Shown here: positions 31,608 to 46,783 of the stretch, piece by piece
Layout of the letters: each line of letters begins with the position of its first letter
Position numbering within the stretch: position 1 is the first letter of the stretch
Source of the DNA: an uncultured Pseudomonadales bacterium
GTDB taxonomy: Bacteria > Pseudomonadota > Gammaproteobacteria > Pseudomonadales > Azotimanducaceae
Reading direction: 5' to 3'
NCBI GenBank assembly: GCA_943787425.1
Contig: CALSMJ010000001.1
Span: forward strand, 793,271 to 857,270
DNA length: 64,000 nucleotides
Translations under genes and position numbers: made by a program
Notes under the pieces: generated by a model
The model's database searches: none
Told to the model about the DNA's origin: nothing
Seen by the model: only the letters and a program-made list of their open reading frames with translations

Positions 31608-33098
31608 ATGCCTTGGATTTTCTTAACGCTTCTCATCTTCAGCGCAAACTCGACCAATGCGGAACCGGTCTCGATCCTCAACCTACTTTACAACACGGAT
31701 GATCTGACTTTCTTGCAAAATAACCCCCAAGAAGCAGCCTCAAACTCGACAACCGCACTCTCTCAAGATCAAGCCAGAAGCCTTGCCGCCGATCTAAATG
31801 CAAGCCTTGTCCGCGATAATCCCGAAGACCCAATTTATCTCGCCAAGCGACTTGCGAATGTTGGCGTGCTCCAAACTTATGCAGGCGATCTAATCGCTGG
31901 CGATCAATCTTTGCGGGCGGCACTGTCGCAGTTCAATCAAAACGGCGGTTTGTTCGACCCCCGATTACCCCCACTGCTCTCAGCCATCGGCATCAACGGC
32001 TTTCTGCGCAAGGACTATGACACTGCAGAGGATCACTTTCGATGGAGCCAGAACATTCAACACAGAAGCCTTGGCTTGTTTGCGGCCGAGCAATCGACCA
32101 ACCTCAATTGGCTGACGCGCACCTACCTCAGTACCGGCCAGACCGACGCGGCGGACACCGCGCAGCGATACTTACTGCGCATTGCTGAACACGTCCTGCC
32201 AGCCGGCAGTCTAGCGCTTAGCAACATTAAAATTAGTCATTGCGCGGGTACCTCGGCCAGCGAGCGCAAGCACCATCTCACCCGTTTGCCGAAGACCTGG
32301 ATCGTCTGCTCAGACAAACGTTATTCAATGATTCGATCGAACTACTCGATCAAGCGATTCTGGAGATCACCGCAGCCGAGGGGCCCTATTCCGCCAAGTT
32401 GATCGGCGCGCTGGAAACGAAATCTCAGGTTTACAGCTGGCAAGCGGTCGCAGTCGATCGCTCGCAAGAGCAAGCCTCTGGAGCAAATCCTAACCATTCT
32501 GCAGAATCAGCCCGTGGTCGACTCCCGAAGCACTGTCAAACGCGTGGTTCGCCCTAGCCGATGGTTATATCTTGACGGGCAATAAAAAAGCGAAGACGGC
32601 CTACCGCGCCGCATGGCTTGCGGCCAATCCCGCGCCAGCCATCGACCCGGACGCAGCCCTCGTCGCCGAGGCCGACCCAGCAGCCGACGGCTCAGACCCA
32701 GACGAGCGATCCAGAGCCGGGTGATCGTCGTCATCGACCCCGTTCTGCTCTGGCCCGACGCCTATAAACCCATTTACTTTAGCTGCCGTGGTCGATTCCG
32801 AGGCGCCATCGGATACCCAGTATGCCGTGCACTTGCAGTTTAGAATCTCGACCGAGGGTCGCCCAAAGCGAATCAAAGTGCTCAGCGAAGAACGTGCCCC
32901 ATCGCGAGGTCCGCTGGACCCGAACCTTGATCCTTAACAGTCGCTACCGGCCCGCCTTGCGCAACGGTGTGCCCGAGGAAGTTGCGTTACTCGCTCCGCC
33001 AGCCCTTCATTCCTCGGTCCGCGCCGGCACCAACTGCCGCCGACGCATCGCCCGCACCCGTCCCGGACGCTTTCGACAACCCCTCTCTGAGTGTGTAA
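31608..33098 (+). pseudogene. Paralog of the preceding gene (signal peptide, helical repeats, TonB-C-like end), broken by multiple frameshifts
   Basis: Protein-like reading switches frames repeatedly. Frame of 31608 runs to ~32235. It continues as ...AEDLDRLLRQTLFNDSIELLDQAILEITAAEGPYSAKL..., then LEQILTILQNQPVVDS..., then ALADGYILTGNKKAKTAYRAAWLAAN.... The last pieces are YAVHLQFRISTEGRPKRIKVLSEE, ILNSRYRPALRNGVPEEV, and then a stop at 33096-33098. Confidence 0.45.
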
Positions 33099-33144: not shown

Positions 33145-33945
33145 CTACTCGCCCACACCGGTTATAAACACCCGCAGTTGCGCCGCGAGCCCTTTGCACG
33201 CGGCATTACCCGGTCGAGCCAAGATCGGAATGGGCAACACAAGGCCCGCCAAATAACTCGTGCCATTCGCGTCTGCGCTGATTTGCCCGGAAGCGCTCAG
33301 ATTCTTCAAGTCCCAAATCGAGGCTTCATAAGAGGCATCTTGTTCCCAATAGCTCATACCAAAGCAGCCGCCGCCAAAGGTGCTCACCGCACAACTCATC
33401 GACCCGCCTTTGTCGACCGTCACCGTATCGCCCTCGATCCAGGCCAAATAGCGAATACTCGATTGATCGATTTGCGCCTGCACCCCGGCTTCAGCAAACA
33501 AACGAGAAAGGTCGCTGGCATTGGTCGGCGCCGTGCGCGCTTCAAACCACGGATACAAATCATCCTTAAACTGATCTTCCGACACCAGCCGGATCGGATT
33601 GCTGCCTTGCCTTAATATATCCGCCAAACAATCGGTAAAACTTTCTTCGGTTTCACGATCGTTATACGTCGCGCGACCAAGAATCACCATTGCTTCACCG
33701 TCACCCAACACGGCATCGGTTTGACGGGACTGTTCAACTCGGGTTGTCGCACAGGCGCCGAGCTGCAGTAATAGAGCGGCGACAACAATACGGTACGTAC
33801 CCAAACCGCGCCACGCAGCAATCTTAAAACAAGTCGTCCACGCGACGCCGAAACACGATCCTTTCGATGCGGGCTCACCCACGGCCTCCACCTTTCCAAA
33901 CGGTTTCCAGTGAAACCGCCTGTTACATAATCGGTTTTGGGTCAT
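33145..33945 (-). CDS. Hypothetical lipoprotein
   Basis: Lipobox LLLQLGAC. The ATG at 33945 forms an ATGA overlap with the stop of the upstream gene but leaves ~48 aa before the signal peptide. A TTG near 33806 would give a canonical MGTYRIVVAALLLQLGAC leader. Confidence 0.55.
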   Translation of the reverse strand: MTQNRLCNRRFHWKPFGKVEAVGEPASKGSCFGVAWTTCFKIAAWRGLGTYRIVVAALLLQLGACATTRVEQSRQTDAVLGDGEAMVILGRATYNDRETEESFTDCLADILRQGSNPIRLVSEDQFKDDLYPWFEARTAPTNASDLSRLFAEAGVQAQIDQSSIRYLAWIEGDTVTVDKGGSMSCAVSTFGGGCFGMSYWEQDASYEASIWDLKNLSASGQISADANGTSYLAGLVLPIPILARPGNAACKGLAAQLRVFITGVGE

Positions 33946-34616
33946 TCTTGACTCCAATTGAATTCTAACCAAGTCTGGACATTGCGCTGCTTCGGCCACT
34001 CCAGCGCAACCCGCGCGCCGGCATCCCGAATCGCTTCAACCGACGCGGCGTTGAGCGCGTCGGTTGGCTGAAACCCGCCGCCCTCGTTTTTGCCGTAGCC
34101 GACCACCACCCAGGTATCCAGAACCGTCCCGTCCGAGCCCATCAGCTCAAGCTGGTACTTGGTCGATGCGGAGAAAAATTTCAATCCTGACAATTCTGGT
34201 GGCAGAAATGCGTATTCAAGTAGCGTTAGCCTTACAAACCCGTCCGGGCAACGCTCACCTGTGGCAAGCCCCGCAGTGCTCGGCCCACACGCTGGTGCCG
34301 CCAGCGGCCAAACTTTTTCGAACAGCGAATCAATCAAGGTCTCAAAAAATGCATTCTGAAGGGCCCCTAATTCAATCGTCCAATCACCGCCCCCTCTCGG
34401 GAGCTTTTCTCGATGAATCTGGGTGCTAAATTCAGGTGGTCGGATGAAGCCGATTGAGACCGGAAAGGGCTCGATGAGGGGCGTTGGGATCCGACCCGAT
34501 ACCGTCAGGGAATGCGTGCAGCTTCCCAATACGACGCACAGCACACTCAAACTGGCGACCCTTGAAGCCCATCGGAGGCACCGCCTTTCGAATCGATCGA
34601 TTTCCATACTCTGCAT
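33942..34616 (-). CDS. Hypothetical lipoprotein
   Basis: Signal peptide with lipobox (SLSVLCVVLGSC). It is divergent from the 34926 operon. Confidence 0.6.
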   Translation of the reverse strand: MQSMEIDRFERRCLRWASRVASLSVLCVVLGSCTHSLTVSGRIPTPLIEPFPVSIGFIRPPEFSTQIHREKLPRGGGDWTIELGALQNAFFETLIDSLFEKVWPLAAPACGPSTAGLATGERCPDGFVRLTLLEYAFLPPELSGLKFFSASTKYQLELMGSDGTVLDTWVVVGYGKNEGGGFQPTDALNAASVEAIRDAGARVALEWPKQRNVQTWLEFNWSQE

Positions 34617-34925
34617 TCTGATCTACTTTCTAGTCTTCATTCCGTGGCAGAGGCAGGATTACCTGAGCCTGCCGTCTGGCGAATTTTACGCGCTGCCGCC
34701 CCCCACGCGCACCAACGCTTTGTTACAGCAACAATTTAGTGAGCCTTACTCGTAAAAGCAAACCACACTCGCCCAATGCTTTTGTCGACGCGTGCCAACC
34801 GCCAGGACTGCGCTTGCGATTGTCAAAACCATCAGCCGACTCATCCGAAACTACGACAATCATCGTAATTCAGCTTAAATTCAGCTTTAATTCAGCAACA
34901 TTGGCATTTCATCTTGGAGCCCGGC

Positions 34926-35402
34926 ATGCGCCTTGCGTTACTGACACTCATTGGCCTTATTTTGATCAGCGGCTGCCAATCACCCAGTACGCCGCCTGCA
35001 ACGCCGCCCAGCATGCCGAGCCCGTCGTCACCCAGTTCGCCCAGCATGCCGAGCCCGCCATCACCCAGTTCGCCCAGCATGCCAAGCCCGTCATCATCCA
35101 GCTCGCCCAGCATGCCAAGCCCGTCATCCTCCAGCTCGCCCAGCATGCCGAGCCCGTCATCACCCAGTTCGCCCAGCATGCCAAGCCCGTCATCATCCAG
35201 TTCGCCCAGCATGCCAAGCCCGTCATCACCCAGTTCGCCCAGCATGCCAAGCCCGTCATCATCCAGCTCGCCCAGCATGCCGAGCCCGTCATCATCCAGT
35301 TCGCCCAGCATGCCAAGCCCGTCATCATCCAGCTCGCCCAGCATGCCAAGCCCGTCATCATCCAGCTCGCCCAGCATGCCGAGCCCGCCATCCACCCAGT
35401 GA
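34926..35402 (+). CDS. Lipoprotein leader fused to a Ser/Pro-rich repeat (PSMPSPSSPSS x ~12); either a short lipoprotein or the out-of-frame 5' part of the next gene
   Basis: MRLALLTLIGLILISGCQS is a textbook lipoprotein signal with lipobox ISGC. This frame stops at 35400-35402, and that TGA overlaps an ATG in the downstream frame (TGATG). Confidence 0.45.
   Translation: MRLALLTLIGLILISGCQSPSTPPATPPSMPSPSSPSSPSMPSPPSPSSPSMPSPSSSSSPSMPSPSSSSSPSMPSPSSPSSPSMPSPSSSSSPSMPSPSSPSSPSMPSPSSSSSPSMPSPSSSSSPSMPSPSSSSSPSMPSPSSSSSPSMPSPPSTQ
35007..35400. repeat. Tandem array of ~12 copies of a 33-bp unit (cccagcatgccRagcccgtcRtcaYccagYtcg)
   Basis: Counted directly in the sequence. The array is free of stops in three forward and two reverse frames. 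Confidence 0.95.
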
Positions 35403-36661
35403 TGCTGGCAAAAGCCAAGGCTGATGGCGAATCTGGGCCGGCTGGCGCAACCGGTGCACCAGCGGATCCAACTCAAGATCAAACGGGCGCCGCCGGTGAA
35501 AAACTAACGCAGGTCGGGAAGACCTTAACCCGTGCCAGCGGTGATTCAGATACCGCAGAGCGCGGCGAAAGTGATAACAACGACGCCCAGACAGGTTCGG
35601 GGGCTGCAGCTGAACCTTGGGATCCGTTGTTACCCGAACCGCTCGATAATGCCAGTTCCGACGGAGAACGATTTGACGAGTCGCTTGCCGCAGATTCAGC
35701 TGAGTCCTTTGAAAGCAGCGACAGCCAGTCGGGCAGCGCTGCTCAAAATGGCGGCGACGCCGCAGCGTCTGCAGGCCAAGCCGCGTCGATCGATGGCGCG
35801 CAAACCACATCAAGCACCGGGCGCGCCGAAGGCGGACAATCGTCCGAGACCGCGCCATCTGGTAAGGATGGTTCAGAGCCAGGGTCGACACCGATTGCCG
35901 CCGGTGACAACGATCCGGACCGCCAAGCGCTCGCTGACGCGCTGGCTCGCGCTGGAATTAGTCTCACCAAAGCCGGCGAATTACTGAGCCAAAGCGGGTC
36001 CGATGGCGCAAGCAGTGACGACGTCAATTCAGCCCTCAGCGACGCGAGTATTGCGGTTTTAATTCTTGAGCAACAGCTCAATCAAATGGGGTCGGACGGG
36101 GTCGCCGGTGACCGGGTCAGCGAGGCGGCGAGACTGGTCATTTTAGCCAATGAGGCCCTGTCTGAGGCGACCCTTGCGACCGACGGCAGCGCGCCGTTGC
36201 CGACAATCTCTGGACGTTCATCGCAAACAGCCGAAGATCCGCGCATCGCCGAGCTCGATGCCGAACTTGAGCGCTCAATTGTTGTTTTTGAAACCGACAT
36301 TCAGGATGCACGCAACGCGGTCGCCGCCGAATTGGCGGGCAGCGCAACTGACGCCGCGGGCGGCCCCTCAATGGTGGATTTGGCTGAAGGCTTAGCGCAG
36401 TCTGCCCCGGTCAGCGTGACCGAAGGACCAGATGAGGCGTCAGAGGCGCCATCCGCCGAGGTAGGAGCGCCTCAAGGCCGCGCGCCCGGCAAGACCGAAC
36501 AGCAAACTGCTGGCCCCGCACCGATTCCAGAGGATATTCCCAGCCCCCAAGGCGATGACATTGTTGCAAAACAATTACGGGAGGCCGCTGCAGCCGAACA
36601 AGACCCAGCGCTGCGAGCAAAACTCTGGGAAGAATATAAACGGTATAAGCAAGGACTCTGA
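35402..36661 (+). CDS. Acidic low-complexity protein with a short conserved-looking C-terminal helix (DDIVAKQLREAAAAEQDPALRAKLWEEYKRYKQGL)
   Basis: This is the long open frame (track ORF 34739-36661). Sequence upstream of the repeats in this frame looks non-coding and lacks a signal peptide. ATG at 35402 is the first plausible start if the gene is separate. Confidence 0.5.
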   Translation: MLAKAKADGESGPAGATGAPADPTQDQTGAAGEKLTQVGKTLTRASGDSDTAERGESDNNDAQTGSGAAAEPWDPLLPEPLDNASSDGERFDESLAADSAESFESSDSQSGSAAQNGGDAAASAGQAASIDGAQTTSSTGRAEGGQSSETAPSGKDGSEPGSTPIAAGDNDPDRQALADALARAGISLTKAGELLSQSGSDGASSDDVNSALSDASIAVLILEQQLNQMGSDGVAGDRVSEAARLVILANEALSEATLATDGSAPLPTISGRSSQTAEDPRIAELDAELERSIVVFETDIQDARNAVAAELAGSATDAAGGPSMVDLAEGLAQSAPVSVTEGPDEASEAPSAEVGAPQGRAPGKTEQQTAGPAPIPEDIPSPQGDDIVAKQLREAAAAEQDPALRAKLWEEYKRYKQGL

Positions 36662-36664
36662 CCT

Positions 36665-37891
36665 GTGACTGAACCCCGCACTCGACGCGCTCTAACAACC
36701 CTCGTCCAGCTCTGGCTTATCATGACCTTCGCAACCCTTGCGGGCTGCGCGACAACGCAGGTCATAACGGCCAATTCGAAACCACCGGTACAACTGCAGT
36801 CAGTGATTTCAGATGCAGCGCGCGTGGATGTCATGATACTGCCGTTTGCGCCTAACTTGGCATCATTGCCTGAGTCAGATGATGATGACATCCCGGTGTC
36901 GGCCGAGGTGCGCCGAGCCGAGTCCCGTTATCTTGCTTTTCATCTGAAAGATACGCTGGAGCGAACCGGGAACTGGGGCATCGTTCGGGTGGTACCCAGC
37001 GCAGCACGACATCACCCATTACTGGTTTCTGGCAAGATTTTAGCGTCCGATGGCGAGCGTCTGGCTGTTTTGGTTACCGCAACCGATGCCAGCGGGCGCG
37101 TGTGGCTGACGCGGACCTATGAAGACAATGCGAGTAAGTACGCCTATCAATCGATCAAAGAAGACCCCTTTCAAGACCTCTACAACAACATTGCCAATGA
37201 TTTGGTTCTGCAATATCAAGCGCGCGCGGTCGATGACATCCGCAATATCCGGCAAATCGCCGAACTTGCGTTTGCTGCGGATCTGGCGCCTGATGCCTTT
37301 TCTGGCTATCTCACAGAAAATCGGGACGGCACAACCTCGGTGGTCCAAGTACCCGCCGCCGGCGATACTATTCTGCAACGCGTTGCGCGAATTCGGGCGC
37401 AGGATGACCTGCTCGTCGACACCTTAGATGATTACTACTTTAAATTTTACCGGGATGTTAAGCCTTCCTACGATGAATGGCGGTACGCGACCTATGACGA
37501 GGCGGTGAGGCTGCGGCAACTGAACAAACAAGCTCGCAACCGGCTTTTAACGGGCGCCGCGCTCATTGCCGGCGGCATTTACGCCGGCTCTCAAAGCAAC
37601 ACCTGGGCCGCTGACGCGGCTGCAGCAGGCGCCGTCGTCGGTGGTATCGCGGCCGTCAAAGGCGGTCTAGATCGACGCAAGCAAACCGAGATCCATGAGC
37701 AAGCGCTCCAAGAGCTTACCCAATCTTTAGGCCGCGAGATCACGCCGAACGTCCTGGATATCGAAGGCGCAACCGTTGAGCTAACAGGCAGCGCAGAACA
37801 ACAGTACGCCCAATGGCGTTCGATGTTACAAGCACTGTATGAAGCAGAACGAGGTCTAGGCCAAGCGCCCATAACGCCTCAGACCCGATGA
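36665..37891 (+). CDS. Hypothetical lipoprotein with a Gly/Ala-rich C-terminal segment
   Basis: GTG start 3 nt after the previous stop. Lipobox FATLAGC. Glycine-zipper-like LLTGAALIAGGIYAG...AAGAVVGGIAAVKGG. Confidence 0.65.
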   Translation: MTEPRTRRALTTLVQLWLIMTFATLAGCATTQVITANSKPPVQLQSVISDAARVDVMILPFAPNLASLPESDDDDIPVSAEVRRAESRYLAFHLKDTLERTGNWGIVRVVPSAARHHPLLVSGKILASDGERLAVLVTATDASGRVWLTRTYEDNASKYAYQSIKEDPFQDLYNNIANDLVLQYQARAVDDIRNIRQIAELAFAADLAPDAFSGYLTENRDGTTSVVQVPAAGDTILQRVARIRAQDDLLVDTLDDYYFKFYRDVKPSYDEWRYATYDEAVRLRQLNKQARNRLLTGAALIAGGIYAGSQSNTWAADAAAAGAVVGGIAAVKGGLDRRKQTEIHEQALQELTQSLGREITPNVLDIEGATVELTGSAEQQYAQWRSMLQALYEAERGLGQAPITPQTR

Positions 37892-37901
37892 TTAAACGAT
37901 C

Positions 37902-40154
37902 ATGACAACGATCCAACCCGGCACGCTGCTCGCTGATCGCTTTAGGGTTATTGCGGCCGTGCCAACACCGCCGGCTCAGCACCCACGATTTCGGGCGACG
38001 AATTTATCAACTGCCAGTGACGTCATGATCACCGTCGTGCCCCGCTCGGCCGGTGATCTAGCAAGCCTTGCGGCCATCAGCGATCGACTGAAAAAGCTCA
38101 GCCACCCCGATATTCAGGCGCATATCGGTTTTTGGGAAGATGCTCATGCAGGCTACCTTGTTGACGCGCCGCCCGTAACGCCGGCGAGCGACCCGCTGAG
38201 CAAACCACTCAAAGCTGCCCAACTCAGGCGCTTGGTCGCCGCGCTGGGCTATGCCGAGGCGCTGGGCTTTCATCAATCGGGGTTTGATCTGGCCTGGCTC
38301 ACGCCAACGGATCAGCAGGGCTTTATGATTCAACACCTGGGCTGGCCACGCTGGGCACTGACCTCAGCGCCACACAATCATCCCGAGGCAACTGGGCTTG
38401 TGAACTTTGGCGATTGGGCCTATCAATTTTGTACCAACGCACCCTGGCAGGGCCTTGACCAGTTGCAGGCGCAACCACCGTTGCCGGCAGGCTTAACGCC
38501 CCTCATTACGGCGGTGCGACAAGGCACGACCCGCTCCTTTGGCGAGCTTTTGACTTTGATGGACACCGGCGAGGCAGACGCGGCATCCGGTTTGGTCGGG
38601 ACCGGCCCTTTGCAGGCTGCAAACTTTGAGATCGCAAGCCCGGCAGCATCCGCGCCCGCTGCCGCCGTCGTGTCATCAGAATCATCGGCCACGCTGTCTG
38701 ATCGCACACCCGGCGCAGTGCTTGCCAAATCCGGCTGGGAGCCCAAAACCCTGTTAACCGGTTTTGGACTCGTTATTCTTGCCGGCTTTGTCTTTTGGGT
38801 GCTGCCAGATTTAGTCCGCACTCAGAACCAGGCTCAACCCCAACTGAACCCAACCCCGGCCACCGCATCCGAGCCTGCTGGCGTCACGAAGCAGGCGCCC
38901 ATCGCCGACGCCAAAGCCAAAATCCTGGCAGAACAGGCTGCCGAGGTGGCCGAAACGTTTCTGCGGAAACTCATCACACTAGAAGATTTGGGCCTTGCGC
39001 TTTGGGATCCAACCGCCCTCGCTCAAATCAATCAAGCAGCCATGGCAGCTGATGACGCCTTTCGTGCGGGCGACGCGCAAGCCGCGCTTGCGCGCTATAC
39101 TCAGCTACTGGCCAGCGTTACCGCACTTGATGCAGGCCTGCCAGATCGTCGCGCCGAGAATCTGACCCAAGCTCAAAACGCCTTGTCAGACAACAACAGC
39201 GTCGATGCGCTCAAGTTCTGGGCAATTGCGGCCCGATTGAATCCGCAGAAGACCGACATCCAGACAACTTGGCAAGCCGTTCAAAAAATTCCCGCCATTG
39301 AAGCCCTCATGAGCGAAGCCGACCTGGCAGAACGTGCTGGCAAAATCGAAGCTGCCGAGGACATCTTGCGCGAGGCGACTGCGCTGTTCCCGAACTGGAC
39401 GCCCGCACGGGTTGCCTATGAGAGAATGCAACAGGCCGTGCAGCAAAAACAGTTTCAGACCAGCATGACGCTCGGGTTTGCGGCCCTTGCAGAGGAATCC
39501 TATGAATCGGCAATCAGCGCATTTGAGCGAGCCGCCCGCATCGACCCAACGGCGAGCGCCGCCCGAGACGGTCTCGAGCAAGTTCGCCAAGCGCAGCTCA
39601 GACAACAAATCAAAGGCTTTTTTGATGAGGCCCAACAGGCCGAAGCCGCCGGTAACTGGCGCAACGCGCAAACTGCCTATGAGACTGCCCGCACGCTGGC
39701 GCCCAACTTAAGCGATCTTACGGTTCGCATCGAGGCCATGGACACCCGGATCGAGCTCGCTGAAGCATTGACCCAGATCCTTGCGGACCCAGCAAGACTC
39801 CTCGCCGATGCCGAATTCAAGAACGCCAGAGATCTTGCCATTACGATCAGTCAATTACCCCCACCCGTTGGCGATCTGCAAGCACGCCTGCCCATTCTCA
39901 CGCGTATGCTGTCTCATGCGCGTCGCGAGCTGACGCTGACGCTGACCTCGGATGCGCTAACCACCGTCACGGTCCTGCGGTTAGGCAAAGAGGGTCGTTT
40001 GGGCCAAATAACGCAAACCAAGCTGACCTTGTTTCCGGGTCGTTATGTCGTCACCGGATCCAGGACCGGCTATAAAGATGTGCGCCATGAGCTGACCCTT
40101 ACGGGCGAGACCCTCAATCATGCCCTAAACGTCGTTTGCGATGAGCCAATCTAA
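37902..40154 (+). CDS. Membrane protein: N-terminal degenerate Ser/Thr kinase-like domain (pseudokinase), one TM helix, periplasmic TPR-like repeats, C-terminal PEGA-like domain
   Basis: A kinase-like N-lobe is present (LLADRFRVIAAV..., LSHPDIQAHIGFWEDAHAGYLVDAPP). It lacks the GxGxxG loop, the VAIK lysine (VMITVV) and HRDLKPxN (replaced by ALGFHQSGFDLAWL). TM helix LLTGFGLVILAGFVFWVL. C-terminal LFPGRYVVTGSRTGYKDVRHELTL. Confidence 0.6.
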   Translation: MTTIQPGTLLADRFRVIAAVPTPPAQHPRFRATNLSTASDVMITVVPRSAGDLASLAAISDRLKKLSHPDIQAHIGFWEDAHAGYLVDAPPVTPASDPLSKPLKAAQLRRLVAALGYAEALGFHQSGFDLAWLTPTDQQGFMIQHLGWPRWALTSAPHNHPEATGLVNFGDWAYQFCTNAPWQGLDQLQAQPPLPAGLTPLITAVRQGTTRSFGELLTLMDTGEADAASGLVGTGPLQAANFEIASPAASAPAAAVVSSESSATLSDRTPGAVLAKSGWEPKTLLTGFGLVILAGFVFWVLPDLVRTQNQAQPQLNPTPATASEPAGVTKQAPIADAKAKILAEQAAEVAETFLRKLITLEDLGLALWDPTALAQINQAAMAADDAFRAGDAQAALARYTQLLASVTALDAGLPDRRAENLTQAQNALSDNNSVDALKFWAIAARLNPQKTDIQTTWQAVQKIPAIEALMSEADLAERAGKIEAAEDILREATALFPNWTPARVAYERMQQAVQQKQFQTSMTLGFAALAEESYESAISAFERAARIDPTASAARDGLEQVRQAQLRQQIKGFFDEAQQAEAAGNWRNAQTAYETARTLAPNLSDLTVRIEAMDTRIELAEALTQILADPARLLADAEFKNARDLAITISQLPPPVGDLQARLPILTRMLSHARRELTLTLTSDALTTVTVLRLGKEGRLGQITQTKLTLFPGRYVVTGSRTGYKDVRHELTLTGETLNHALNVVCDEPI

Positions 40155-42244
40155 TGCCACCCATTGACCCCTTGCAAGACACCCTCGAGCCCACGCCTTT
40201 TGAGGCGCCAAAACAGGCAGTTGATATCAAAGCCCGACGACTCAGCCCGAGGCGCGTGGTGACCCTTTTGCTTGCCGCTTTCATTGCGATGACCGCTTGG
40301 CACCTGTTTACCGCCAAGGCCGTCTTAATCGTCTTCACGCCGCCAGCTGAATCCGAATCCGTCTCAGGTTGGTTAACCCTACCGCTGGGCGAACGCTATC
40401 TGGTCCGGCCCGGTGATCTCACAGTTGAGGCCGACGCCAAAGGCTACTACCCGATCGACGCGCGTTTAACCGTATCGTTCGATCCTGATCAGCGTTTTGC
40501 ACTGGCTTTCGAAAAACTGCCCGGGCACCTTCGCCTCACCACCGGCGATATACCCGCTGAGGTCGAGATCGATGGCGAGTCCGTTGGCACCACCCCGCTC
40601 ACGGTTTCAGATCTGAGCGCCGGCGAGCACCGCGTGTCGATCACTGCCGACTGGTATGTTCCGATCCAAACCACCGTGGAGATCCTTGGCTTGGACCAGT
40701 CTCAGGATTTGGCGTTGGCCTTGACACCAGCTTGGGGCACTGTGAGCCTATCCAGCCAACCCACCGAGGCGCGCCTTATTGCCGATGGGGAAGATCTCGG
40801 GCCGCTGCCGACAACGGTAAGATTATTAGAGGGTACGCGAACGCTTTTGATCTCAAAAGCGGGGTATCAATCTCAGCGCCTCGATTTAGCGATCAAACGT
40901 GGTACGTCCATCACGGTGCCCGAAGTCACCCTGGCACCTGCGAACGGCGCGGTGACCCTGAACAGCGCACCCGCCGGCGCTTTGGTCACAGCAAATGGGG
41001 TGTATCTAGGGGTCACCCCGCTTCAGCATTCGTTGTCCCCAAATCGCACCTATGATTTTCTAGTCAGCAAGTCTGGCTTTGAACCGGTGACCCGGTCATT
41101 GCAGCTTGCCCCCACTGAAACGGTCACGCTGAACCTAACCCTTGCGCCCCGATTGGGAACCGTAACCTTTGATATTGCTCCGAAGCAGGCATCGATTCGC
41201 ATCAACGGGGTACTGCAAAGCGCCAAAAATACCACGATGCGGCTGCCCACAACGCCCCAAACCATTGAAATCAGTCAGGACGGCTTCGCAACGATCACAC
41301 AAACCATCACCCCGGATGCTGATTTCCCCAAAACCCTGAAGATCAATCTGCTGACCCTGGCAGAAGCGGAACTGGCTCAATTCCCAGAGACGATCGAGGT
41401 CAAGGGCGGCTATCGCTTGCAGCGCATTCTACCGGCGACCATCGAACTCGGCGCGGCGCGGCGAGACCGCGGCGGACGCAGCAATGAAATACAGCGCTTG
41501 ATCACCCTCACTCAGCCTTATTACCTGGGCACCACCGAAGTCACCAATGCCCAATATCAGGCCTTTGATGCCGGCCATAATCCCGGGGTTTTAGGACGAA
41601 CCCTGCTCACAGCGCAGGAGCGACCGGTCGTTGGCGTCAGCTGGGATCAGGCAGTGGCCTTCTGCAACTGGTTGAGCGACCAAGAAGGTTTGCCGCGGGC
41701 CTATACCTCGGTTAACGGGCATTATGAGCTGATCACACCCAGAACCTTAGGGTATCGTTTGCCGACAGAAGCTGAGTGGTCTCGAGCCGGACGGTATGCC
41801 GATATTGCGGCCGGTGCGCAAGGCGACATCACCAGCCGTTCCCGCTTTGCCTGGGGTGATGATCTGCCACCGCCAAGCGATTTCGCCAATTTAGCCGATG
41901 AAACCGCAACGGGCTTCGCGCCCAATATCATCCCGAACTTTCGAGATCGCTTTCGAGGGCCAGCACCAGCAGGACATTTCAAGGCCAATGCCTTGGGCCT
42001 GTTTGATCTAACCGGCAATGTTTCTGAGTGGGTGCATGACCGATTTAGCACCAACCGCACGCCCAGCGCCGCGACCGATTGGACGGGGCCTAACGAGGGC
42101 GCTGTTCGGGTTATTCGCGGCTCGAGTTATCTGTCCGGCAGCTTTAGCACCTTGCGCTGGGCTTATCGGGATTCAGGCCTTGAAGGCCGGCAAGACGTCG
42201 GCTTCCGGCTGGCAAAAAATGCCGCCCCAGGCGCCGTCGAATGA
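40154..42244 (+). CDS. Membrane-anchored protein with ~5 PEGA repeats and a C-terminal FGE-sulfatase (SUMF1-like) domain lacking the catalytic cysteines
   Basis: TAATG overlap with the previous gene. PEGA-like units include VEIDGESVGTTPL...GEHRVSITADWY, ARLIADGEDLGPLP...ISKAGYQ and VTANGVYLGVTPL...VSKSGFEP. FGE domain: YYLGTTEVTNAQYQAF...RPVVGVSWDQAVAFCNWLS...GYRLPTEAEWSRAGR...GNVSEWVHD...VIRGSSYLSGSFSTLRWAYRD. Confidence 0.8.
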   Translation: MPPIDPLQDTLEPTPFEAPKQAVDIKARRLSPRRVVTLLLAAFIAMTAWHLFTAKAVLIVFTPPAESESVSGWLTLPLGERYLVRPGDLTVEADAKGYYPIDARLTVSFDPDQRFALAFEKLPGHLRLTTGDIPAEVEIDGESVGTTPLTVSDLSAGEHRVSITADWYVPIQTTVEILGLDQSQDLALALTPAWGTVSLSSQPTEARLIADGEDLGPLPTTVRLLEGTRTLLISKAGYQSQRLDLAIKRGTSITVPEVTLAPANGAVTLNSAPAGALVTANGVYLGVTPLQHSLSPNRTYDFLVSKSGFEPVTRSLQLAPTETVTLNLTLAPRLGTVTFDIAPKQASIRINGVLQSAKNTTMRLPTTPQTIEISQDGFATITQTITPDADFPKTLKINLLTLAEAELAQFPETIEVKGGYRLQRILPATIELGAARRDRGGRSNEIQRLITLTQPYYLGTTEVTNAQYQAFDAGHNPGVLGRTLLTAQERPVVGVSWDQAVAFCNWLSDQEGLPRAYTSVNGHYELITPRTLGYRLPTEAEWSRAGRYADIAAGAQGDITSRSRFAWGDDLPPPSDFANLADETATGFAPNIIPNFRDRFRGPAPAGHFKANALGLFDLTGNVSEWVHDRFSTNRTPSAATDWTGPNEGAVRVIRGSSYLSGSFSTLRWAYRDSGLEGRQDVGFRLAKNAAPGAVE

Positions 42245-42300
42245 TGGCGATGGCGATGCGGTCTGATAAGCTTAAATCGATTCAATGTCGAGCCTCTTGC

Positions 42301-42609
42301 ATGCGTGCCAACCTTACAATGCTGTTTGCTGTTTGCGTTCTTCTGCCGGCCCAAGTTGTCGCCGCGAGTCCAGCGACATCAAGCCCTGCCAGTGCAGCGC
42401 CCAACCCAGCGCCGGCTGCTGACCCCACTCCGCAAGCCTTAAACACAACCGCTGCGCCCAGCCAGTCCAGCGCGCTGGACGCCGCGCAACAGCCGGTGCC
42501 TGACGACGCGACGCTAACCGCGCCTGGCTTGGGCCGCGCTTTTGAGGCCTTTCAGCCCAGTGAGGCAATCAGTGCTGACAACGCCGTGCCCTTTCCAACC
42601 AATATCTAA
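42301..42609 (+). CDS. Small secreted Ala/Pro/Ser-rich protein
   Basis: Signal peptide MRANLTMLFAVCVLLPAQVVAA, then a low-complexity region. ATG at 42301 is preferred to 42241. Confidence 0.5.
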   Translation: MRANLTMLFAVCVLLPAQVVAASPATSSPASAAPNPAPAADPTPQALNTTAAPSQSSALDAAQQPVPDDATLTAPGLGRAFEAFQPSEAISADNAVPFPTNI

Positions 42610-42624
42610 GGCCTTAACCTATTC

Positions 42625-43416
42625 ATGAAACAATTTAGCTCAGATTTTATCTATCAATTGATGTCTCTCATCGTGGCGATTTTATTGGTTCACGCAATTT
42701 ACGTTGCCGTCATTCGGCCAAACGCCAATAGCCTTTTAGAAATTCAAGCCGAGCTTATCAATGCTGACCCCAGTTACGTGCCGGAGCGCAGCGCTTATAT
42801 CATTGTAAAAGACCTCGAGCAGGAGGCCTGCTTTATCTTAATGCTATGGGCCATGGCACTTATGGGCATCAAGGCACGCGACAATCATCGAGAACGGGCC
42901 CTGTTTGAAATAGACCTTTTACCCCGCAATCAATCCAACAGTATTTTGCCTGAAGATACGCGGGACTATGCTCGCCCAATAGAAGCCTTAAGCGCGGACG
43001 CGCAACAGCGCCTGTTGCCGCGCGCGTTACTGGCCGCGCTGCACCGCTTTCGCGCCACGGGCAATATTCAGGATGTTGCGCACACCATTCGTGCCACCTG
43101 CGAGAGCGAAAGCGAGCACTTGGATTCGGAACTATCAATGATTCGCTACATCGCCTGGGCAATTCCTTCGATTGGCTTTTTAGGCACCGTTCGCGGCATT
43201 GGACAAGCCCTTGGTCAAGCGCATCAAGCCGCACAAGGCGACATTGCTGGCGTCACCCAAAGCTTGGGCGTGGCCTTTAATTCGACCTTCGTCGCCCTGT
43301 TAATCAGTATTCTCATCATGTTCTTGATGCATCAATTGCAATTGGCGCAAGAGCGCACCACCCAAGATGCTGAGCAATATTGTGATAATCGCCTTTTACG
43401 TTACCTGCAGGTTTAG
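42625..43416 (+). CDS. MotA/TolQ/ExbB-family proton channel protein
   Basis: C-terminal signature region IRYIAWAIPSIGFLGTVRGIGQALG...LGVAFNSTFVALLISILIMFL matches the MotA_ExbB pattern (LGLLGTVxG ... AL.tT..GL). Additional N-terminal TM helices are present. Confidence 0.8.
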   Translation: MKQFSSDFIYQLMSLIVAILLVHAIYVAVIRPNANSLLEIQAELINADPSYVPERSAYIIVKDLEQEACFILMLWAMALMGIKARDNHRERALFEIDLLPRNQSNSILPEDTRDYARPIEALSADAQQRLLPRALLAALHRFRATGNIQDVAHTIRATCESESEHLDSELSMIRYIAWAIPSIGFLGTVRGIGQALGQAHQAAQGDIAGVTQSLGVAFNSTFVALLISILIMFLMHQLQLAQERTTQDAEQYCDNRLLRYLQV

Positions 43417-43419
43417 ACC

Positions 43420-44691
43420 GTGACCCTTGCATTTCTTGAACTCAATGATCTTGAGTTACGGCTCTGGCAAGCCGATCACGCGGTTGTCTCAGAACCCGGT
43501 TGGGCCTTGCTGACGGAGCCGCCGAAGGTTGGCCAACAGGCATTGGATCAGGCCAGACTGCAACCTCGATTGGCCAATTGTCAGTTTTGGCACACCCTCA
43601 GTACGGATCCTATGCCCGGCGCGACCCCGATCGCTCGACATCATGCGGACTTGGCCTATTTACAACTGACCGCCTTTAAACATCTCGCACCGAGCAGCGA
43701 GTTTGTTGTCAGCGTGCCCGGACATTTTGATCGAGCTGATCTGAGCTTACTGCTGGGGCTGATGGATGCTGCAAGCATCACCGTCAAAGCGCTGATTGAC
43801 CCTGGGGTACTCCTTGCCAGCAGGACCCCTAGCACGACGCCTAACCTGCTCTATCTGGATGTTGGTCTGCATGCCGTGACGATAACGGTAATTCAACAAG
43901 GCGCACAGTCGCAGCGCAGCAGCTGCCGCATCGCCCATAACGCGGGCTATCTGAACCTCATTGACCGCCTGGCCAATTATGCCGCCAGTGCGCTGGTTCG
44001 AAAATCTCGGTTTGATCCACTGCAACATGCCAGCACCGAGCAACAACTCTTTCAGCAGCTCTTGCAACCGAATCATCCCCTTGCCAGTTTGGGCCAAGGC
44101 CTGATTAGCTTGCATCATGAGGGCGTCCAATATGACGTGCAGCTGCCTGAGACCGATCTGCGCGCAGCCGCCGCGGAGCTTGTACCCGATGTTGTGAAAG
44201 CGATTCAGGCCGCCTCAAACGGCCCCGCTGAGGTTTTGTTGAGCCATCGCGCCCAGCGGCTCCCAGGACTCATCGACTCCCTATCCCTGATCCCAGGCCT
44301 TGTGACCCAGCGGCTCACGAGCGCCAGCCTGCTCGAGGCTTTTACCGCTTTGGCGCCAGAACTGACGGCCAACAGCACGCACAATCAACTCATCTACAGT
44401 TTGGCCAACCCGGCGCAAGCAACCGCGACCGCCGCTGAGCAATTAAGCACCGGCCACTCGATTACGCATATTGTGCAGCAGGGCATCGCCGTCGAGATCA
44501 AAGCCTTTTCGGAAACCACCGCAGACGACTTTGGCCTGATCCTTGACACGGTAACCGGTCAATGGCAGCTGACGCCAGGCAACCTGAGCATTGCCCTCAA
44601 TGGGCAATCCGTGACGGAACCGTGTTTGCTGAAAGCGGGCGATGCCATTTTAGCGGGTAACCAAACCTTTCTATTCATCCAGGTGCGATAA
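43420..44691 (+). CDS. Cytoplasmic protein with a degenerate Hsp70/actin-like ATPase fold and a possible FHA-like C-terminus
   Basis: GTG start 3 nt after the channel gene. [40 protein letters not shown] parallels Hsp70 [55 protein letters not shown] parallels DLGGGTFDVSI, but the phosphate-binding glycines and aspartates are lost. The C-terminus is ...[32 protein letters not shown]. Confidence 0.45.
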   Translation: [423 protein letters not shown]

Positions 44692-44696
44692 GCCGC

Positions 44697-45785
44697 GTGG
44701 CCAAACGACGCGAAACGAATATTTTCAGCCTGTCTTTTTTAGATATCATGTCGTGCGGTTTTGGCGCGGTGATCCTAGTTTACATCACCATCAATCATGG
44801 CACCCTCTCAAGCGGTATCCAGACCGATCCCGAACGATTCGCCGAGGTCAAAAAGATCGAAATCGAAATTCTTGCAGAGCAGGAAAACCAAGTCATCCTG
44901 CGCAACAGCCTTGCGCTTGTAGACGATGCGGTTCTAACAACGGAACAAAGCATCCGAGACAAACTCAAAGCCATAGAGGCCCTAACCCAGCAGTTGCTCG
45001 AAGCTCAAAGCGCGCAGAGCCTGGATACCGACGGGATTGAAGCGCTTAAAACAGCGTTGGTCAAACTCCAGGCCGAGCGCGACACCCTGACCCTCAGTGT
45101 CGCCGAGGCCGAAGGCAATGATCTGCGAGCGATGGTCGGCGAAGGCGATCGCCAGTATCTAACCGGCTTGAACTTGGGCGGCCAGCATATTTTGCTGTTA
45201 TTTGATGTGTCGGGCAGCATGCTCGATGAAACCCTTGTTAATATCATTCGAAGGCGAAATCTGCCTGAAGCCGAGCAACGCGCGTCGAAAAAATGGCAAC
45301 GCGGCTTGCGCACCGTGGATTGGATCACTGCCAATCTGCCTAGGGATGTTCAATTTCAGATTATTGCATTTTCGAGCACCGCGCGGAGCGCCCTGCCCGA
45401 GACCAATGGTGAGTGGCTTCAAACCAGCGACACCGAAACCTTGGACGCCAGTCTGGCGGCGCTACAAGCGCTCACCCCCGGCGGCGGCAGCAACCTGCAT
45501 GCGGCGTTTACCGCCGCTGCCGCCCTTGACCCACAACCGGACAATATTTTCTTGATCACGGACGGCCTACCCACTCAAGGCGCAATGCCAGTAAAAGCAG
45601 GTCTTGTCTCCGCCAAAGACCGCTTAAACCTTTTTCAAAACGCCATGAGCGTGGTCAACCTTTCAACGCCCATCAACGTCATTTTATTCCCCATGGAAGG
45701 TGACCCCATTGCCAGTCCCTCTTTTTGGCGGCTGGCACAAATGACGGGCGGCGCATTCTTGTCACCCGCAAGGGACTGGCCATGA
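44697..45785 (+). CDS. ExbD/TolR-like single-pass anchor + coiled coil + vWA (MIDAS) domain protein
   Basis: N-terminus NIFSLSFLDIMSCGFGAVILVYIT has an Asp at the start of the TM helix, as in ExbD/TolR. A ~110-aa heptad-like region follows. MIDAS residues are DVSGS, GGGSN and ITDG. Confidence 0.8.
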   Translation: MAKRRETNIFSLSFLDIMSCGFGAVILVYITINHGTLSSGIQTDPERFAEVKKIEIEILAEQENQVILRNSLALVDDAVLTTEQSIRDKLKAIEALTQQLLEAQSAQSLDTDGIEALKTALVKLQAERDTLTLSVAEAEGNDLRAMVGEGDRQYLTGLNLGGQHILLLFDVSGSMLDETLVNIIRRRNLPEAEQRASKKWQRGLRTVDWITANLPRDVQFQIIAFSSTARSALPETNGEWLQTSDTETLDASLAALQALTPGGGSNLHAAFTAAAALDPQPDNIFLITDGLPTQGAMPVKAGLVSAKDRLNLFQNAMSVVNLSTPINVILFPMEGDPIASPSFWRLAQMTGGAFLSPARDWP

Positions 45786-46783
45786 GACGCAAGCTCCGCG
45801 AAGTTGAAGGCATGAGCCTCTCTTTTTTAGATGTCATCAGCTGCGGCTTTGGCGCCTTAATACTATTGTTGGTGCTCACCAAAGTTTATGACCCAGTGGT
45901 CTTTGATCCATCGATAACCGATCTCGACGGTTATCTCAAGGAGCTCGAGGAAACCCTGGCGACGCTGAAAGGTGAGACCCGAGTGCTCAATCGAAACCTG
46001 CTGCGTCGCGAAGACCTCAAAACGGATCAAGTGGCTCAACTGACGCGCATTCAAAGTGAGCTCGCAAGCCTTGAAAGCACCAACCGCCAGACGCAATTGG
46101 AGGCCGAGGCCCAAGCGGCCATTCAAGCAAAATTGGCCGACGCCAAACAGTCCCTCACCGAAGAGATGCAGGCGCTACTCAAGGGCTATCAAAAATCAAT
46201 CGATGATACCGTGATCGGCGGGATCCCAGTGGACAGCGAATACGTCATATTCATCATCGACACCTCGGGCAGCATGTTCAGTTACGCCTGGCCCATGGTG
46301 GTACAGAAGCTGGCGGAGACCTTGGAGGTCTATCCCAATTTGAAAGGCATCCAAGTGATGAATGATATGGGCCAGTACATGTTCGCCCAGTACGCAGGCC
46401 AATGGATCCCGGACACCCCAGCTCGGCGGCAGGCGATTATTAATCGGCTGCGGGACTGGAATGTTTTCAGCAACTCAAGCCCAGTTGAAGGTATCACCAA
46501 GGCCATTGCGACCTTCTATCGACCAGGCCGAAAAATCTCACTCTATGTATTTGGCGATGAATTTACCGGGCGCTCGATTCAGCAGGTCGTCGACACGGTC
46601 GACCGAATTAATCGCCGGGACGAGCAAGGCAACCGGCTGGTCCGGATTCATGGGGTGGGCTTCCCTGTACAGTTCGCAAATCCGCCACAGTATCAGGAGA
46701 CTGGCATCAAATTCGCCATTCTAATGCGCACCTTGTGTGCAGCCAATGACGGCACCTTTGTGGCCTTAAACCGGTTTCGTTGA
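45782..46783 (+). CDS. Second ExbD/TolR-like anchor + coiled coil + vWA domain protein (paralog of the previous gene)
   Basis: ATGA overlap with the previous gene. N-terminus MSLSFLDVISCGFGALILLLVL, then a coiled-coil region. MIDAS-like DTSGS, SNSSP and FGDEF. Confidence 0.8.
   Translation: MRRKLREVEGMSLSFLDVISCGFGALILLLVLTKVYDPVVFDPSITDLDGYLKELEETLATLKGETRVLNRNLLRREDLKTDQVAQLTRIQSELASLESTNRQTQLEAEAQAAIQAKLADAKQSLTEEMQALLKGYQKSIDDTVIGGIPVDSEYVIFIIDTSGSMFSYAWPMVVQKLAETLEVYPNLKGIQVMNDMGQYMFAQYAGQWIPDTPARRQAIINRLRDWNVFSNSSPVEGITKAIATFYRPGRKISLYVFGDEFTGRSIQQVVDTVDRINRRDEQGNRLVRIHGVGFPVQFANPPQYQETGIKFAILMRTLCAANDGTFVALNRFR

Follow-up and report, generated by a model that had tools for sequence, protein, structure and literature searches.

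A lipoprotein gene with a 33-bp tandem array and two probably artefactual surplus bases

Gene layout and reading frames as deposited

The window, by which we mean the whole 64,000-nucleotide stretch of DNA that was analysed, comes from an uncultured Pseudomonadales bacterium and contains a lipoprotein signal peptide, a tandem array of 33-bp units and an acidic protein body. As deposited, these parts fall into two reading frames: the signal-peptide frame, opening at ATG 34926, ends at TGA 35400-35402, and the +2 frame, in which the array becomes AQHA(E/K)PV(I/V)(T/I)Q(F/L), runs on through the body to the stop at 36659-36661. A preliminary description of the locus had reported both frames, with the array read as PSMPSPSSPSS units in the first, and a TGATG at the junction; translation of the window bears out the frames, and the TGATG is present. 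The features of the gene and its immediate surroundings are as follows.

34814-36661, + strand: public gene call P0099, 615 aa with a TTG start, identical to the translation of window positions 34814-36658
34867-34896, + strand: 11-bp direct repeat in 2.7 copies (AATTCAGCTTA), found by Tandem Repeats Finder upstream of the start
34916-34919, + strand: Shine-Dalgarno-like GGAG, 6 nt 5′ of ATG 34926
34926-34976, + strand: lipoprotein signal peptide MRLALLTLIGLILISGC, lipobox ISGC, Cys codon 34974-34976; the same peptide heads single-ORF orthologues
34977-35004, + strand: QSPSTPPAT, the part of the Pro/Ser tether that precedes the repeats
35005-35400, + strand: tandem array, 33 bp x 12 (Tandem Repeats Finder)
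35400-35404, + strand: TGATG, an apparent stop/start overlap; in intact copies it lies within AGT GAT GCT (Ser-Asp-Ala)
35420-36661, + strand: body, comprising a disordered acidic region, bundles of helices and a C-terminal motif (stop 36659-36661; homologue alignment; AlphaFold2 model)
36665-37891, + strand: downstream 408-aa lipoprotein gene, lipobox LAGC, adjoining the gene in all orthologous loci

A lipoprotein signal was defined by a positively charged n-region, an h-region and a lipobox [LVI][ASTVI][GAS]C about 15-35 residues from the start, and inspection of M-R-LALLTLIGLIL-ISG-C finds a short charged n-region, a hydrophobic h-region and the lipobox. This is the only real export signal and it lies in the Pro/Ser frame, as had been claimed. 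The 11-bp direct repeat sits inside a conserved block, CATCGTAATTCAGCTTAAATTCAGCTTTAATTCAGC; the repeat block is near-invariant in close orthologues and still recognisable 5′ of homologues at 36-39% protein identity (L012, L014 and L099). A promoter and terminator scan gave nothing exceeding the shuffled expectation, and an Rfam scan of the whole window returned 0 matches. The locus is predicted to hold one gene, encoding a lipoprotein of about 577 aa that would consist of a signal peptide with its lipobox, a flexible Pro/Ser tether supplied by the array, a body that is acidic and helical and, at the C-terminus, a pair of strongly conserved helices. The public call P0099 appears to be a chimera, in which leader, signal peptide and repeat, all translated out of frame, are fused to the real body.

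Reading frame of the 33-bp array

Tandem Repeats Finder resolves the array at 35005-35400 with a period of 33, 12.0 copies, 93% matches, 0% indels and a score of 650, which agrees with the twelve 33-bp units reported before; such a repeat is not explicable by chance and is real. It starts downstream of the lipobox Cys, and the polymorphic positions of its units match those listed in the preliminary description. The AQHA reading is a shadow frame, because all of its unit-to-unit differences are non-synonymous (0 synonymous and 15 non-synonymous) and stops interrupt it in orthologues. For the signal-peptide frame, where the units read PSMPSPS(S/P)(S/P)SS, the corresponding counts are 11 synonymous and 5 non-synonymous, and this Pro/Ser frame is the true frame of the array, the one under selection. 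Since the array leaves five of the six frames open, finding one of them open does not show that it is coding. Two minus-strand ORFs, at 34892-35482 and 34966-35418, are set aside as shadows that the low-complexity array produces, and 151-aa ORFs called in L137-139, considered as a conserved second frame, proved to be the AQHA shadow, with the signal-peptide frame continuing into the body.

Conspecific contigs carry between 5 and 12 copies of the unit, the value of 5 coming from short-read contigs in which the array may be collapsed, and the earlier view of an expanding, polymorphic linker is upheld. Tether length differs between strains by entire 33-bp units. As had also been pointed out, the unit is a multiple of 3 and a change in copy number cannot switch the frame; with this unit and a longest homopolymer of 4 in the 34926-35402 region, the locus lacks the make-up of a phase-variable contingency locus.

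Two surplus bases around the 3′ end of the array

The frame changes in two steps, each caused by one surplus base; the two sites are separated by 22-24 nt and lie at the 3′ end of the array. These sites, the stretch between them and a neighbouring gene with comparable breaks are located as follows.

35395-35397, + strand: site 1, a CCC run with one surplus C, frame 0 to +1, from alignments to at least 10 conspecific contigs
35398-35418, + strand: third-frame (+1) stretch of 21 nt encoding the conserved SDAGKSQ, unreadable by either long window ORF
35417-35420, + strand: site 2, AAGG with one surplus base, frame +1 to +2, from haplotype comparison
31608-33084, + strand: neighbouring gene with at least 7 frame changes in the window; its product has 479 aa in conspecifics

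Two haplotypes, A and B, are of equal length and both in frame at the junction. Site 1 reads ATCCACC-AGT in haplotype A, ATC-ACCCAGT in haplotype B and ATCCACCCAGT in the window; site 2 reads GCCAAG-CTG or GCCAGG-CTG in A, -CCAAGGCTG in B and GCCAAGGCTG in the window, and the contrast at site 2 can also be written as AAAAGCCAAG-CTG in A versus AAAA-CCAAGGCTG in B, the surplus forms of the window at the two sites being ATCCACCCAGT and AAAAGCCAAGGCTG. Across both sites, haplotype A runs ATCCACCAGT...AAAAGCCA[A/G]GCTG and haplotype B ATCACCCAGT...AAAACCAAGGCTG. Where a surplus base is placed depends on the reference: haplotype A puts the two at 35395-35397 and 35417-20, and haplotype B, represented by L001, at C 35392 (within C 35392-35393) and G 35414. 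Both placements are valid, and combining them reveals a union of the two haplotypes, the window being A plus B interleaved at site 1 and again at site 2.

Deleting one C and one G yields an ORF of 577 aa that is identical to L136 at 552/555 residues, besides a two-unit difference in length, and the conspecific proteins P0087-P0095 read ...PSTSDAGKSQADGESG across the junction. Six conspecific contigs match the window at 99.3-99.7% identity over the 5.5 kb downstream, and the window is A-type at 31/32 of the downstream diagnostic SNPs. The two junction bases are the sole indels of that comparison; no other indel occurs in the 5.5 kb, which shows that errors are not frequent throughout the contig.

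The signal-peptide ATG is joined to the conserved C-terminus by a single ORF in 15 of the 18 contigs examined, both in conspecific contigs (L135, L136, L145, L147 and L137-139; 5-7 of the 15) and in those of other species (L002-4, L006-7, L009, L010 and L090; 8-10 of the 15); the break lies elsewhere in each of the three exceptions. In about 35 homologues that are more distant, too, a lipobox leads into a Pro/Ser tract at the start of a single ORF. Both surplus bases together were found in no conspecific contig examined: L135, L136, L137-L145 and L147 have neither, and L146 has that of site 2 only. Short-read contigs spanning the region have no indel in any case. Contigs named in the 'contig_N' style, taken to be sister long-read contigs, show frame-disturbing indels of their own in the array (+1 in unit 5 of L001, +1 at site 2 of L146, -2/-1 in L145), and sporadically split genes elsewhere too. 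L146 is an independent assembly with the same site 2 surplus, which could mean a real allele and not a recurrent artefact.

These comparisons bear on the three readings put forward in the preliminary description: translationally coupled genes and a programmed or slippage-dependent shift are contradicted by the single-ORF orthologues, and a frameshift mutation is unlikely. A native pair of separate genes, coupled through TGATG, would account for the stop/start overlap at 35400-35404, yet in intact relatives those bases are internal codons, gene calls starting with MPSPSS are internal-start choices inside one open frame, and no Shine-Dalgarno sequence (GGAG/AGGA) stands 5′ of ATG 35402. Because one ORF is found in each orthologue and in all intact conspecific contigs, and the two-gene form in none, coupling is rejected. 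The two-gene TGATG junction across orthologues that the preliminary description had named as a possible outcome was not seen, signal peptide, repeat and body forming one ORF; an indel fusing the frames, which it had named beforehand as the mark of an assembly artefact, is borne out by the contig comparison.

Programmed ribosomal frameshifting or repeat slippage could in principle join the signal peptide to the body, or the locus could be phase-variable, and a long repeat directly upstream of the frame change whose copy number differs among strains fits such a mechanism. A rescue by recoding would, however, require the ribosome to shift by +1 twice, at sites 24 nt apart, with SDAGKSQ of the conserved protein in the third frame, and for that reason programmed shifting is very improbable. 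In addition, the signal-peptide frame between 34926 and 35402 contains no X XXY YYZ heptamer and no homopolymer > 4, the frame-preserving 33-bp unit speaks against slippage and phase variation, and the two-frame layout occurs in no orthologue.

The explanation that we favour, with a probability of about 0.9, is that the two surplus bases are a mixed-strain consensus artefact of long-read metagenome assembly. The window seems to stem from a long-read assembly, judging by the 1.5-Mb contig that carries the P0099 call and by its sister contigs. A long-read assembler or polisher would have derived a single consensus from the reads of two co-existing strains; these strains would differ by offset changes at both sites, and the consensus would have kept the bases of both, in which case the surplus bases are most likely absent from the DNA of the organism. 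Independent assemblies of this population lack the two-base lesion, and the same type of error recurs elsewhere in the contig, namely in the gene at 31608-33084 and as an extra base at 33966. In the neighbouring gene, which is intact with 479 aa in L135-L139, the changes are insertions only, A and B are interleaved at every frame-shifting surplus base examined, and each shifted segment keeps near-perfect amino-acid conservation.

Consensus indels in long-read sequences are known to cause frameshift errors in gene calling (PMC9262707), and the proovframe preprint (10.1101/2021.08.23.457338) addresses the same problem. The locus resembles such long-read (Nanopore-type) metagenome artefacts in that single-base surpluses fragment gene calls, vary between assemblies of one population and do not occur in short-read assemblies. 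It differs from classic homopolymer miscalling in that the runs in the window are short (CC to CCC; AG/GG to AAGG), and the interleaved alleles point to haplotype merging.

Against this stands the view that the surplus bases are real mutations, by which the gene would be inactivated or split in this strain, leaving a lipidated Pro/Ser peptide of 158 aa and, at best, a cytoplasmic body re-initiated at ATG 35402. The deposited sequence does read so, one of the two surplus bases is also present in L146, and the flanking 5.5 kb are free of other indels. This view needs two independent insertions 22-24 nt apart in a genome otherwise 99.5% identical to intact copies, and these insertions would have to equal exactly the union of two co-circulating haplotypes. 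Moreover, the neighbouring gene is broken at least 7 times by the same insertion-only union pattern, and pseudogenes decay otherwise; a Shine-Dalgarno sequence, too, is missing 5′ of the putative re-initiation codon. Real mutation is therefore unlikely, and the cause is probably consensus building. A related and quite unlikely possibility is that the +1/+1 allele is really present in the strain as an uncompensated intermediate between A and B at each site. A and B differ by apparent compensated indel pairs, and frameshifted intermediates may therefore once have existed in nature; were the +1/+1 allele true, the tether-body junction would evolve by steps of frameshift and compensation, and some alleles in the population would for a time be inactive, or re-initiated and without a signal.

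The lipoprotein family and its tether

The gene belongs to a family of which at least 529 loci were confirmed in marine Gammaproteobacteria by a GTDB genome scan, in which the best match among those listed reached 70%; JGI metagenome contigs contained no conspecific locus, the best being 67% identical. The body ends in the conserved motif IPEDIPSPQGDDIVAKQLREAA..DP.L..KLWEEYKRYK.GL, and the last 45 residues of the family are almost invariant. An AlphaFold2 model of the body has a mean pLDDT of 60.5; its confident helices span 171-261, 280-313 and 387-418. Neither Pfam nor NCBIfam, scanned with both ORFs and the neighbouring genes, has a match for this lipoprotein, a profile search of the PDB returned designed helical proteins at a best E-value of 0.27, and a Foldseek comparison of the body model with the PDB found nothing with E <= 0.001, the best being generic helical bundles at 0.16. 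The gene is located in a conserved envelope gene cluster, and the gene at 36665-37891 matches its L135 counterpart at 100% identity.

In Mycoplasma, surface lipoproteins of the Vlp type vary in size and contain in-frame tandem repeats. As in Vlp proteins, the length of the lipoprotein varies through gain or loss of in-frame units; unlike them, it has no homology to Vlp, its host is a Gram-negative marine gammaproteobacterium and it has no homopolymeric on/off switch. The tether probably works as a spacer of variable length that sets the folded part apart from the lipid anchor. A bioRxiv preprint (10.1101/2021.01.05.425367) puts at about half the share of E. coli outer-membrane lipoproteins that have an intrinsically disordered N-terminal linker. 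The tether shares with these linkers a low-complexity Pro/Ser-rich segment directly after the lipidated Cys and before the folded part, but it is far longer (about 140 residues) and is built from a near-perfect 33-bp array of strain-variable copy number.

The locus would serve mainly as a caution, in that the deposited call appears to misrepresent the true product, an exported lipoprotein. Insertions that interleave two haplotypes are a fingerprint of mixed-strain consensus errors, and this fingerprint is usable for flagging other false frameshifts, or false 'pseudogenes', in long-read MAGs. The underlying biology appears to be that of an uncharacterised lipoprotein family, without a Pfam, NCBIfam or PDB relative, that is widespread in marine Gammaproteobacteria and carries a tether of variable copy number.

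Array and reading frames

The feature under study (34926-36661) contains a single array at 35005-35400 with a period of 33, 12.0 copies, 93% matches, no indels and a score of 650 (Tandem Repeats Finder), which bears out the twelve 33-bp units of the preliminary description. Preceded by GGAG at 34916-34919, the ATG at 34926 opens MRLALLTLIGLILISGC with the lipobox ISGC; this signal-peptide or Pro/Ser frame yields PSMPSPS(S/P)(S/P)SS units across the array and terminates at TGA 35400-35402, while the +2 or AQHA frame reads the array as AQHA(E/K)PV... and continues through the body to 36661. The stop/start overlap TGATG lies at 35400-35404, and the 33-bp unit, a multiple of three, preserves the frame at any copy number; the export signal, both readings of the array, the TGATG and the frame-keeping unit had been read correctly. 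Through the array all but one of the six frames are open, which is uninformative because a low-complexity repeat is simply without stop codons.

The body has 86 database homologues and belongs to no family in Pfam or NCBIfam, both of which were searched. The distant homologues P0014, P0033, P0034 and P0044 are single proteins comprising a signal peptide with lipobox, a Pro/Ser-rich tract, an acidic region and a conserved C-terminus (IPEDIPSPQGDDIVAKQLREAA..DP.L..KLWEEYKRYK.GL). In many homologues the called gene begins at an internal 'MPSPSS...'; in the DNA 5' of such starts, read in short-read contigs L002-L004, L006, L007 and L009, signal peptide, lipobox and Pro/Ser repeats all share the open frame of the body, and the AQHA frame is interrupted by stop codons. 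A GTDB genome scan confirmed at least 529 loci, and marine Gammaproteobacteria account for nearly all of the matches listed (with the labels Pseudomonadales, OM182, Azotimanducaceae, Porticoccaceae and Halieaceae). In nearly all of the ~42 retrieved loci whose N-terminus is complete, the Pro/Ser tract comes directly after the lipobox (24 identified by pattern, most of the others by eye). Since relatives carry lipobox, Pro/Ser tract and body in a single frame, the comparison indicates that the native architecture is one lipoprotein gene, and the proposal that signal peptide and body natively occupy separate frames fails against these single ORFs. The stops in the AQHA frame of relatives likewise point to the Pro/Ser frame as the coding one, in agreement with differences between window units (11 synonymous and 5 non-synonymous in the Pro/Ser frame, 0 and 15 in the AQHA frame).

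Surplus bases at the 3' edge of the array

At 90% identity, the closest homologue falls in a cluster of 38 members. P0099 (615 aa; NCBI and ENA), carried on a 1.53-Mb contig, starts at TTG and is the exact translation of window 34814-36658, hence the public call for this locus; its first ~200 residues are leader, signal peptide and repeat translated out of frame (window 34814-36661). Many of the remaining members are 427-aa proteins starting MPSPPSTSDAGKSQADGESG. Conspecific contigs were collected through P0090 (L135-L144), the neighbouring MotA/ExbB protein (L145-L149) and P0001 (L001), and 3' of the array the window is 99.2-99.7% identical to them. Across 5.5 kb compared with six conspecific contigs there are no indels apart from two bases that the window has in excess.

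Surplus bases in the window relative to conspecific contigs
35395-35397, + strand: site 1, one surplus base in the CCC run
35417-35420, + strand: site 2, one surplus base in AAGG

The ORF obtained by removing one C and one G is 577 aa long; it agrees with the L136 full-length protein in 552 of the 555 residues aligned and otherwise differs by two units (22 aa) in length. The 21 nt between the surplus bases (35398-35418; AGT GAT GCT GGC AAA AGC CAA) encode SDAGKSQ in the third frame, a peptide found in conspecific proteins. The frame change therefore consists of two one-base surpluses at the 3' edge of the array, not one repeat-caused switch. Two translationally coupled genes, one of the readings proposed earlier, are extremely improbable, as the TGATG bases encode Ser-Asp-Ala in intact copies and no ribosome-binding site precedes ATG 35402. 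Programmed frameshifting or phase variation within the repeat is very unlikely: two +1 shifts would be required, the two-frame layout is not conserved, the 33-bp unit maintains frame, and neither a slippery heptamer nor a homopolymer longer than 4 was found.

Two junction haplotypes of equal length, both in frame, circulate in the population.

Array-body junction
Haplotype A: GCCATCCACC-AGTGATGCTGGCAAAAGCCA[A/G]G-CTGATGG; peptide PPSTSDAGKSQADG; L135, L136, L137-L144
Haplotype B: GTCATC-ACCCAGTGATGCTGGCAAAA-CCAAGGCTGATGG; peptide PSSPSDAGKTKADG; L001, L145, L147
Window only: GCCATCCACCCAGTGATGCTGGCAAAAGCCAAGGCTGATGG; frameshifted

At both sites the window interleaves A and B bases; outside them, 31 of its 32 diagnostic SNPs are A-type.

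Indels in neighbouring genes and sister assemblies

The gene at 31608-33084 (+), an intact 479-aa ORF for a secreted protein in L135-L139, has at least seven frame changes in the window, where surplus bases far outnumber missing ones. All frame-shifting surplus bases examined there interleave A-type and B-type alleles (window AGCGAAGAACG versus AGCGAA-AACG and AGCAAG-AACG; window GTTGCGTTACTC versus GTTGCGTT-CTC and GTTCAATA-CTC). The protein encoded within every shifted segment remains near-perfect, which fits recent or virtual insertions, not pseudogene decay; this breakage is the same type of artefact as the lipoprotein frame split. In the minus-strand gene 33942-34616, one surplus base at 33966 relative to conspecific contigs alters the last ~13 residues of a 230-aa lipoprotein (window ORF, 224 aa) and is probably another consensus error.

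Indels also depend on assembly type. Within the ENA accession series of the 'contig_N' contigs, the indels in this array differ from contig to contig (an extra C in unit 5 in L001, a surplus at site 2 only in L146, units of 31 and 32 bp in L145), and genes of these contigs are sporadically split at other places too; no short-read contig spanning the region has an indel. In L145-L149 the split points differ and affect Ion_trans, EamA, DUF4139, VWA and 408-aa lipoprotein genes, a pattern that shows sporadic frameshift errors throughout this data series. L001, L145 and L146 have one extra base relative to window 40426, within the PEGA/FGE-sulfatase ORF close to its 5' end, because of which the gene is called as 610 instead of 696 aa in L001 and L145 (it is split further in L146); the extra base may be genuine or may be one more long-read error. 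Frameshift-causing consensus indels in long-read assemblies are documented (PMC9262707) and are also the subject of the proovframe preprint.

The frame split as proposed is not real and is best explained as an artefact, a reading to which we assign a probability of about 90%: the window contig would be a long-read assembly like its 'contig_N' sisters, and polishing with reads of mixed strains would have introduced the surplus bases. The preliminary description had also offered a frameshift mutation. A genuine double mutation in the strain, with which the surplus shared with L146 and the clean flanks would agree, is nevertheless unlikely, as it requires two independent insertions, each of which happens to combine both local haplotypes, beside a gene that carries at least seven others of this type. 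In practice, the public annotation of the locus needs correction, and the 'interleaved haplotypes' fingerprint can be recognised in other long-read MAGs.

The lipoprotein and its cluster

The gene sits in a conserved cluster (window 33145-46783) whose order is kept in orthologous loci.

Other cluster members
Two divergently transcribed lipoproteins, 5' of the lipoprotein gene
408-aa lipoprotein
750-aa TPR protein
696-aa protein with three PEGA domains and an FGE-sulfatase domain
MotA/ExbB protein
423-aa protein
VWA protein
352-aa protein

Upstream, 30-60 nt 5' of the lipoprotein start, the block CATCGTAATTCAGCTTAAATTCAGCTTTAATTCAGC (34861-34900) holds an 11-bp x 2.7 direct repeat with a unit of about one helical turn. 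It is nearly invariant among close orthologues and better conserved than the protein, being still recognisable 5' of the L012, L014 and L099 homologues at only 36-39% protein identity. The block has no match in Rfam and may be an operator or promoter element.

The product is a lipoprotein of ordinary type, so far uncharacterised, whose tether is a tandem repeat of variable length. In E. coli, the residue after the lipidated Cys (+2 rule) bears on outer-membrane transfer; here it is Gln, which by analogy suggests transfer to the outer membrane. The AlphaFold2 model of the body comprises a helix (25-54), ~115 disordered acidic residues, a confident three-helix bundle (171-261), a long helix (280-313) and a C-terminal helix pair (387-418), with no significant match among solved structures.

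The tether spans ~140 Pro/Ser residues, 12 x 11 of them from the array. As the description of an expanding, polymorphic linker anticipated, copy number varies within the species (5-12: the window has 12, L136 and L145 have 10, L140 has at least 10, L135, L146 and L001 have 9, and three short-read contigs, where the array may be collapsed, have 5) and between species (33-bp units in 6 to 9 copies, or 36-bp units in 3-4 copies). Every change is in frame, which fits gain or loss of whole units through slippage or unequal recombination. According to a preprint, disordered linkers are common in outer-membrane lipoproteins (bioRxiv 10.1101/2021.01.05.425367), where they likewise directly follow the lipidated Cys. 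Our best guess is that the array acts as a length-adjustable spacer, which would set the reach of the helical part from the membrane anchor.
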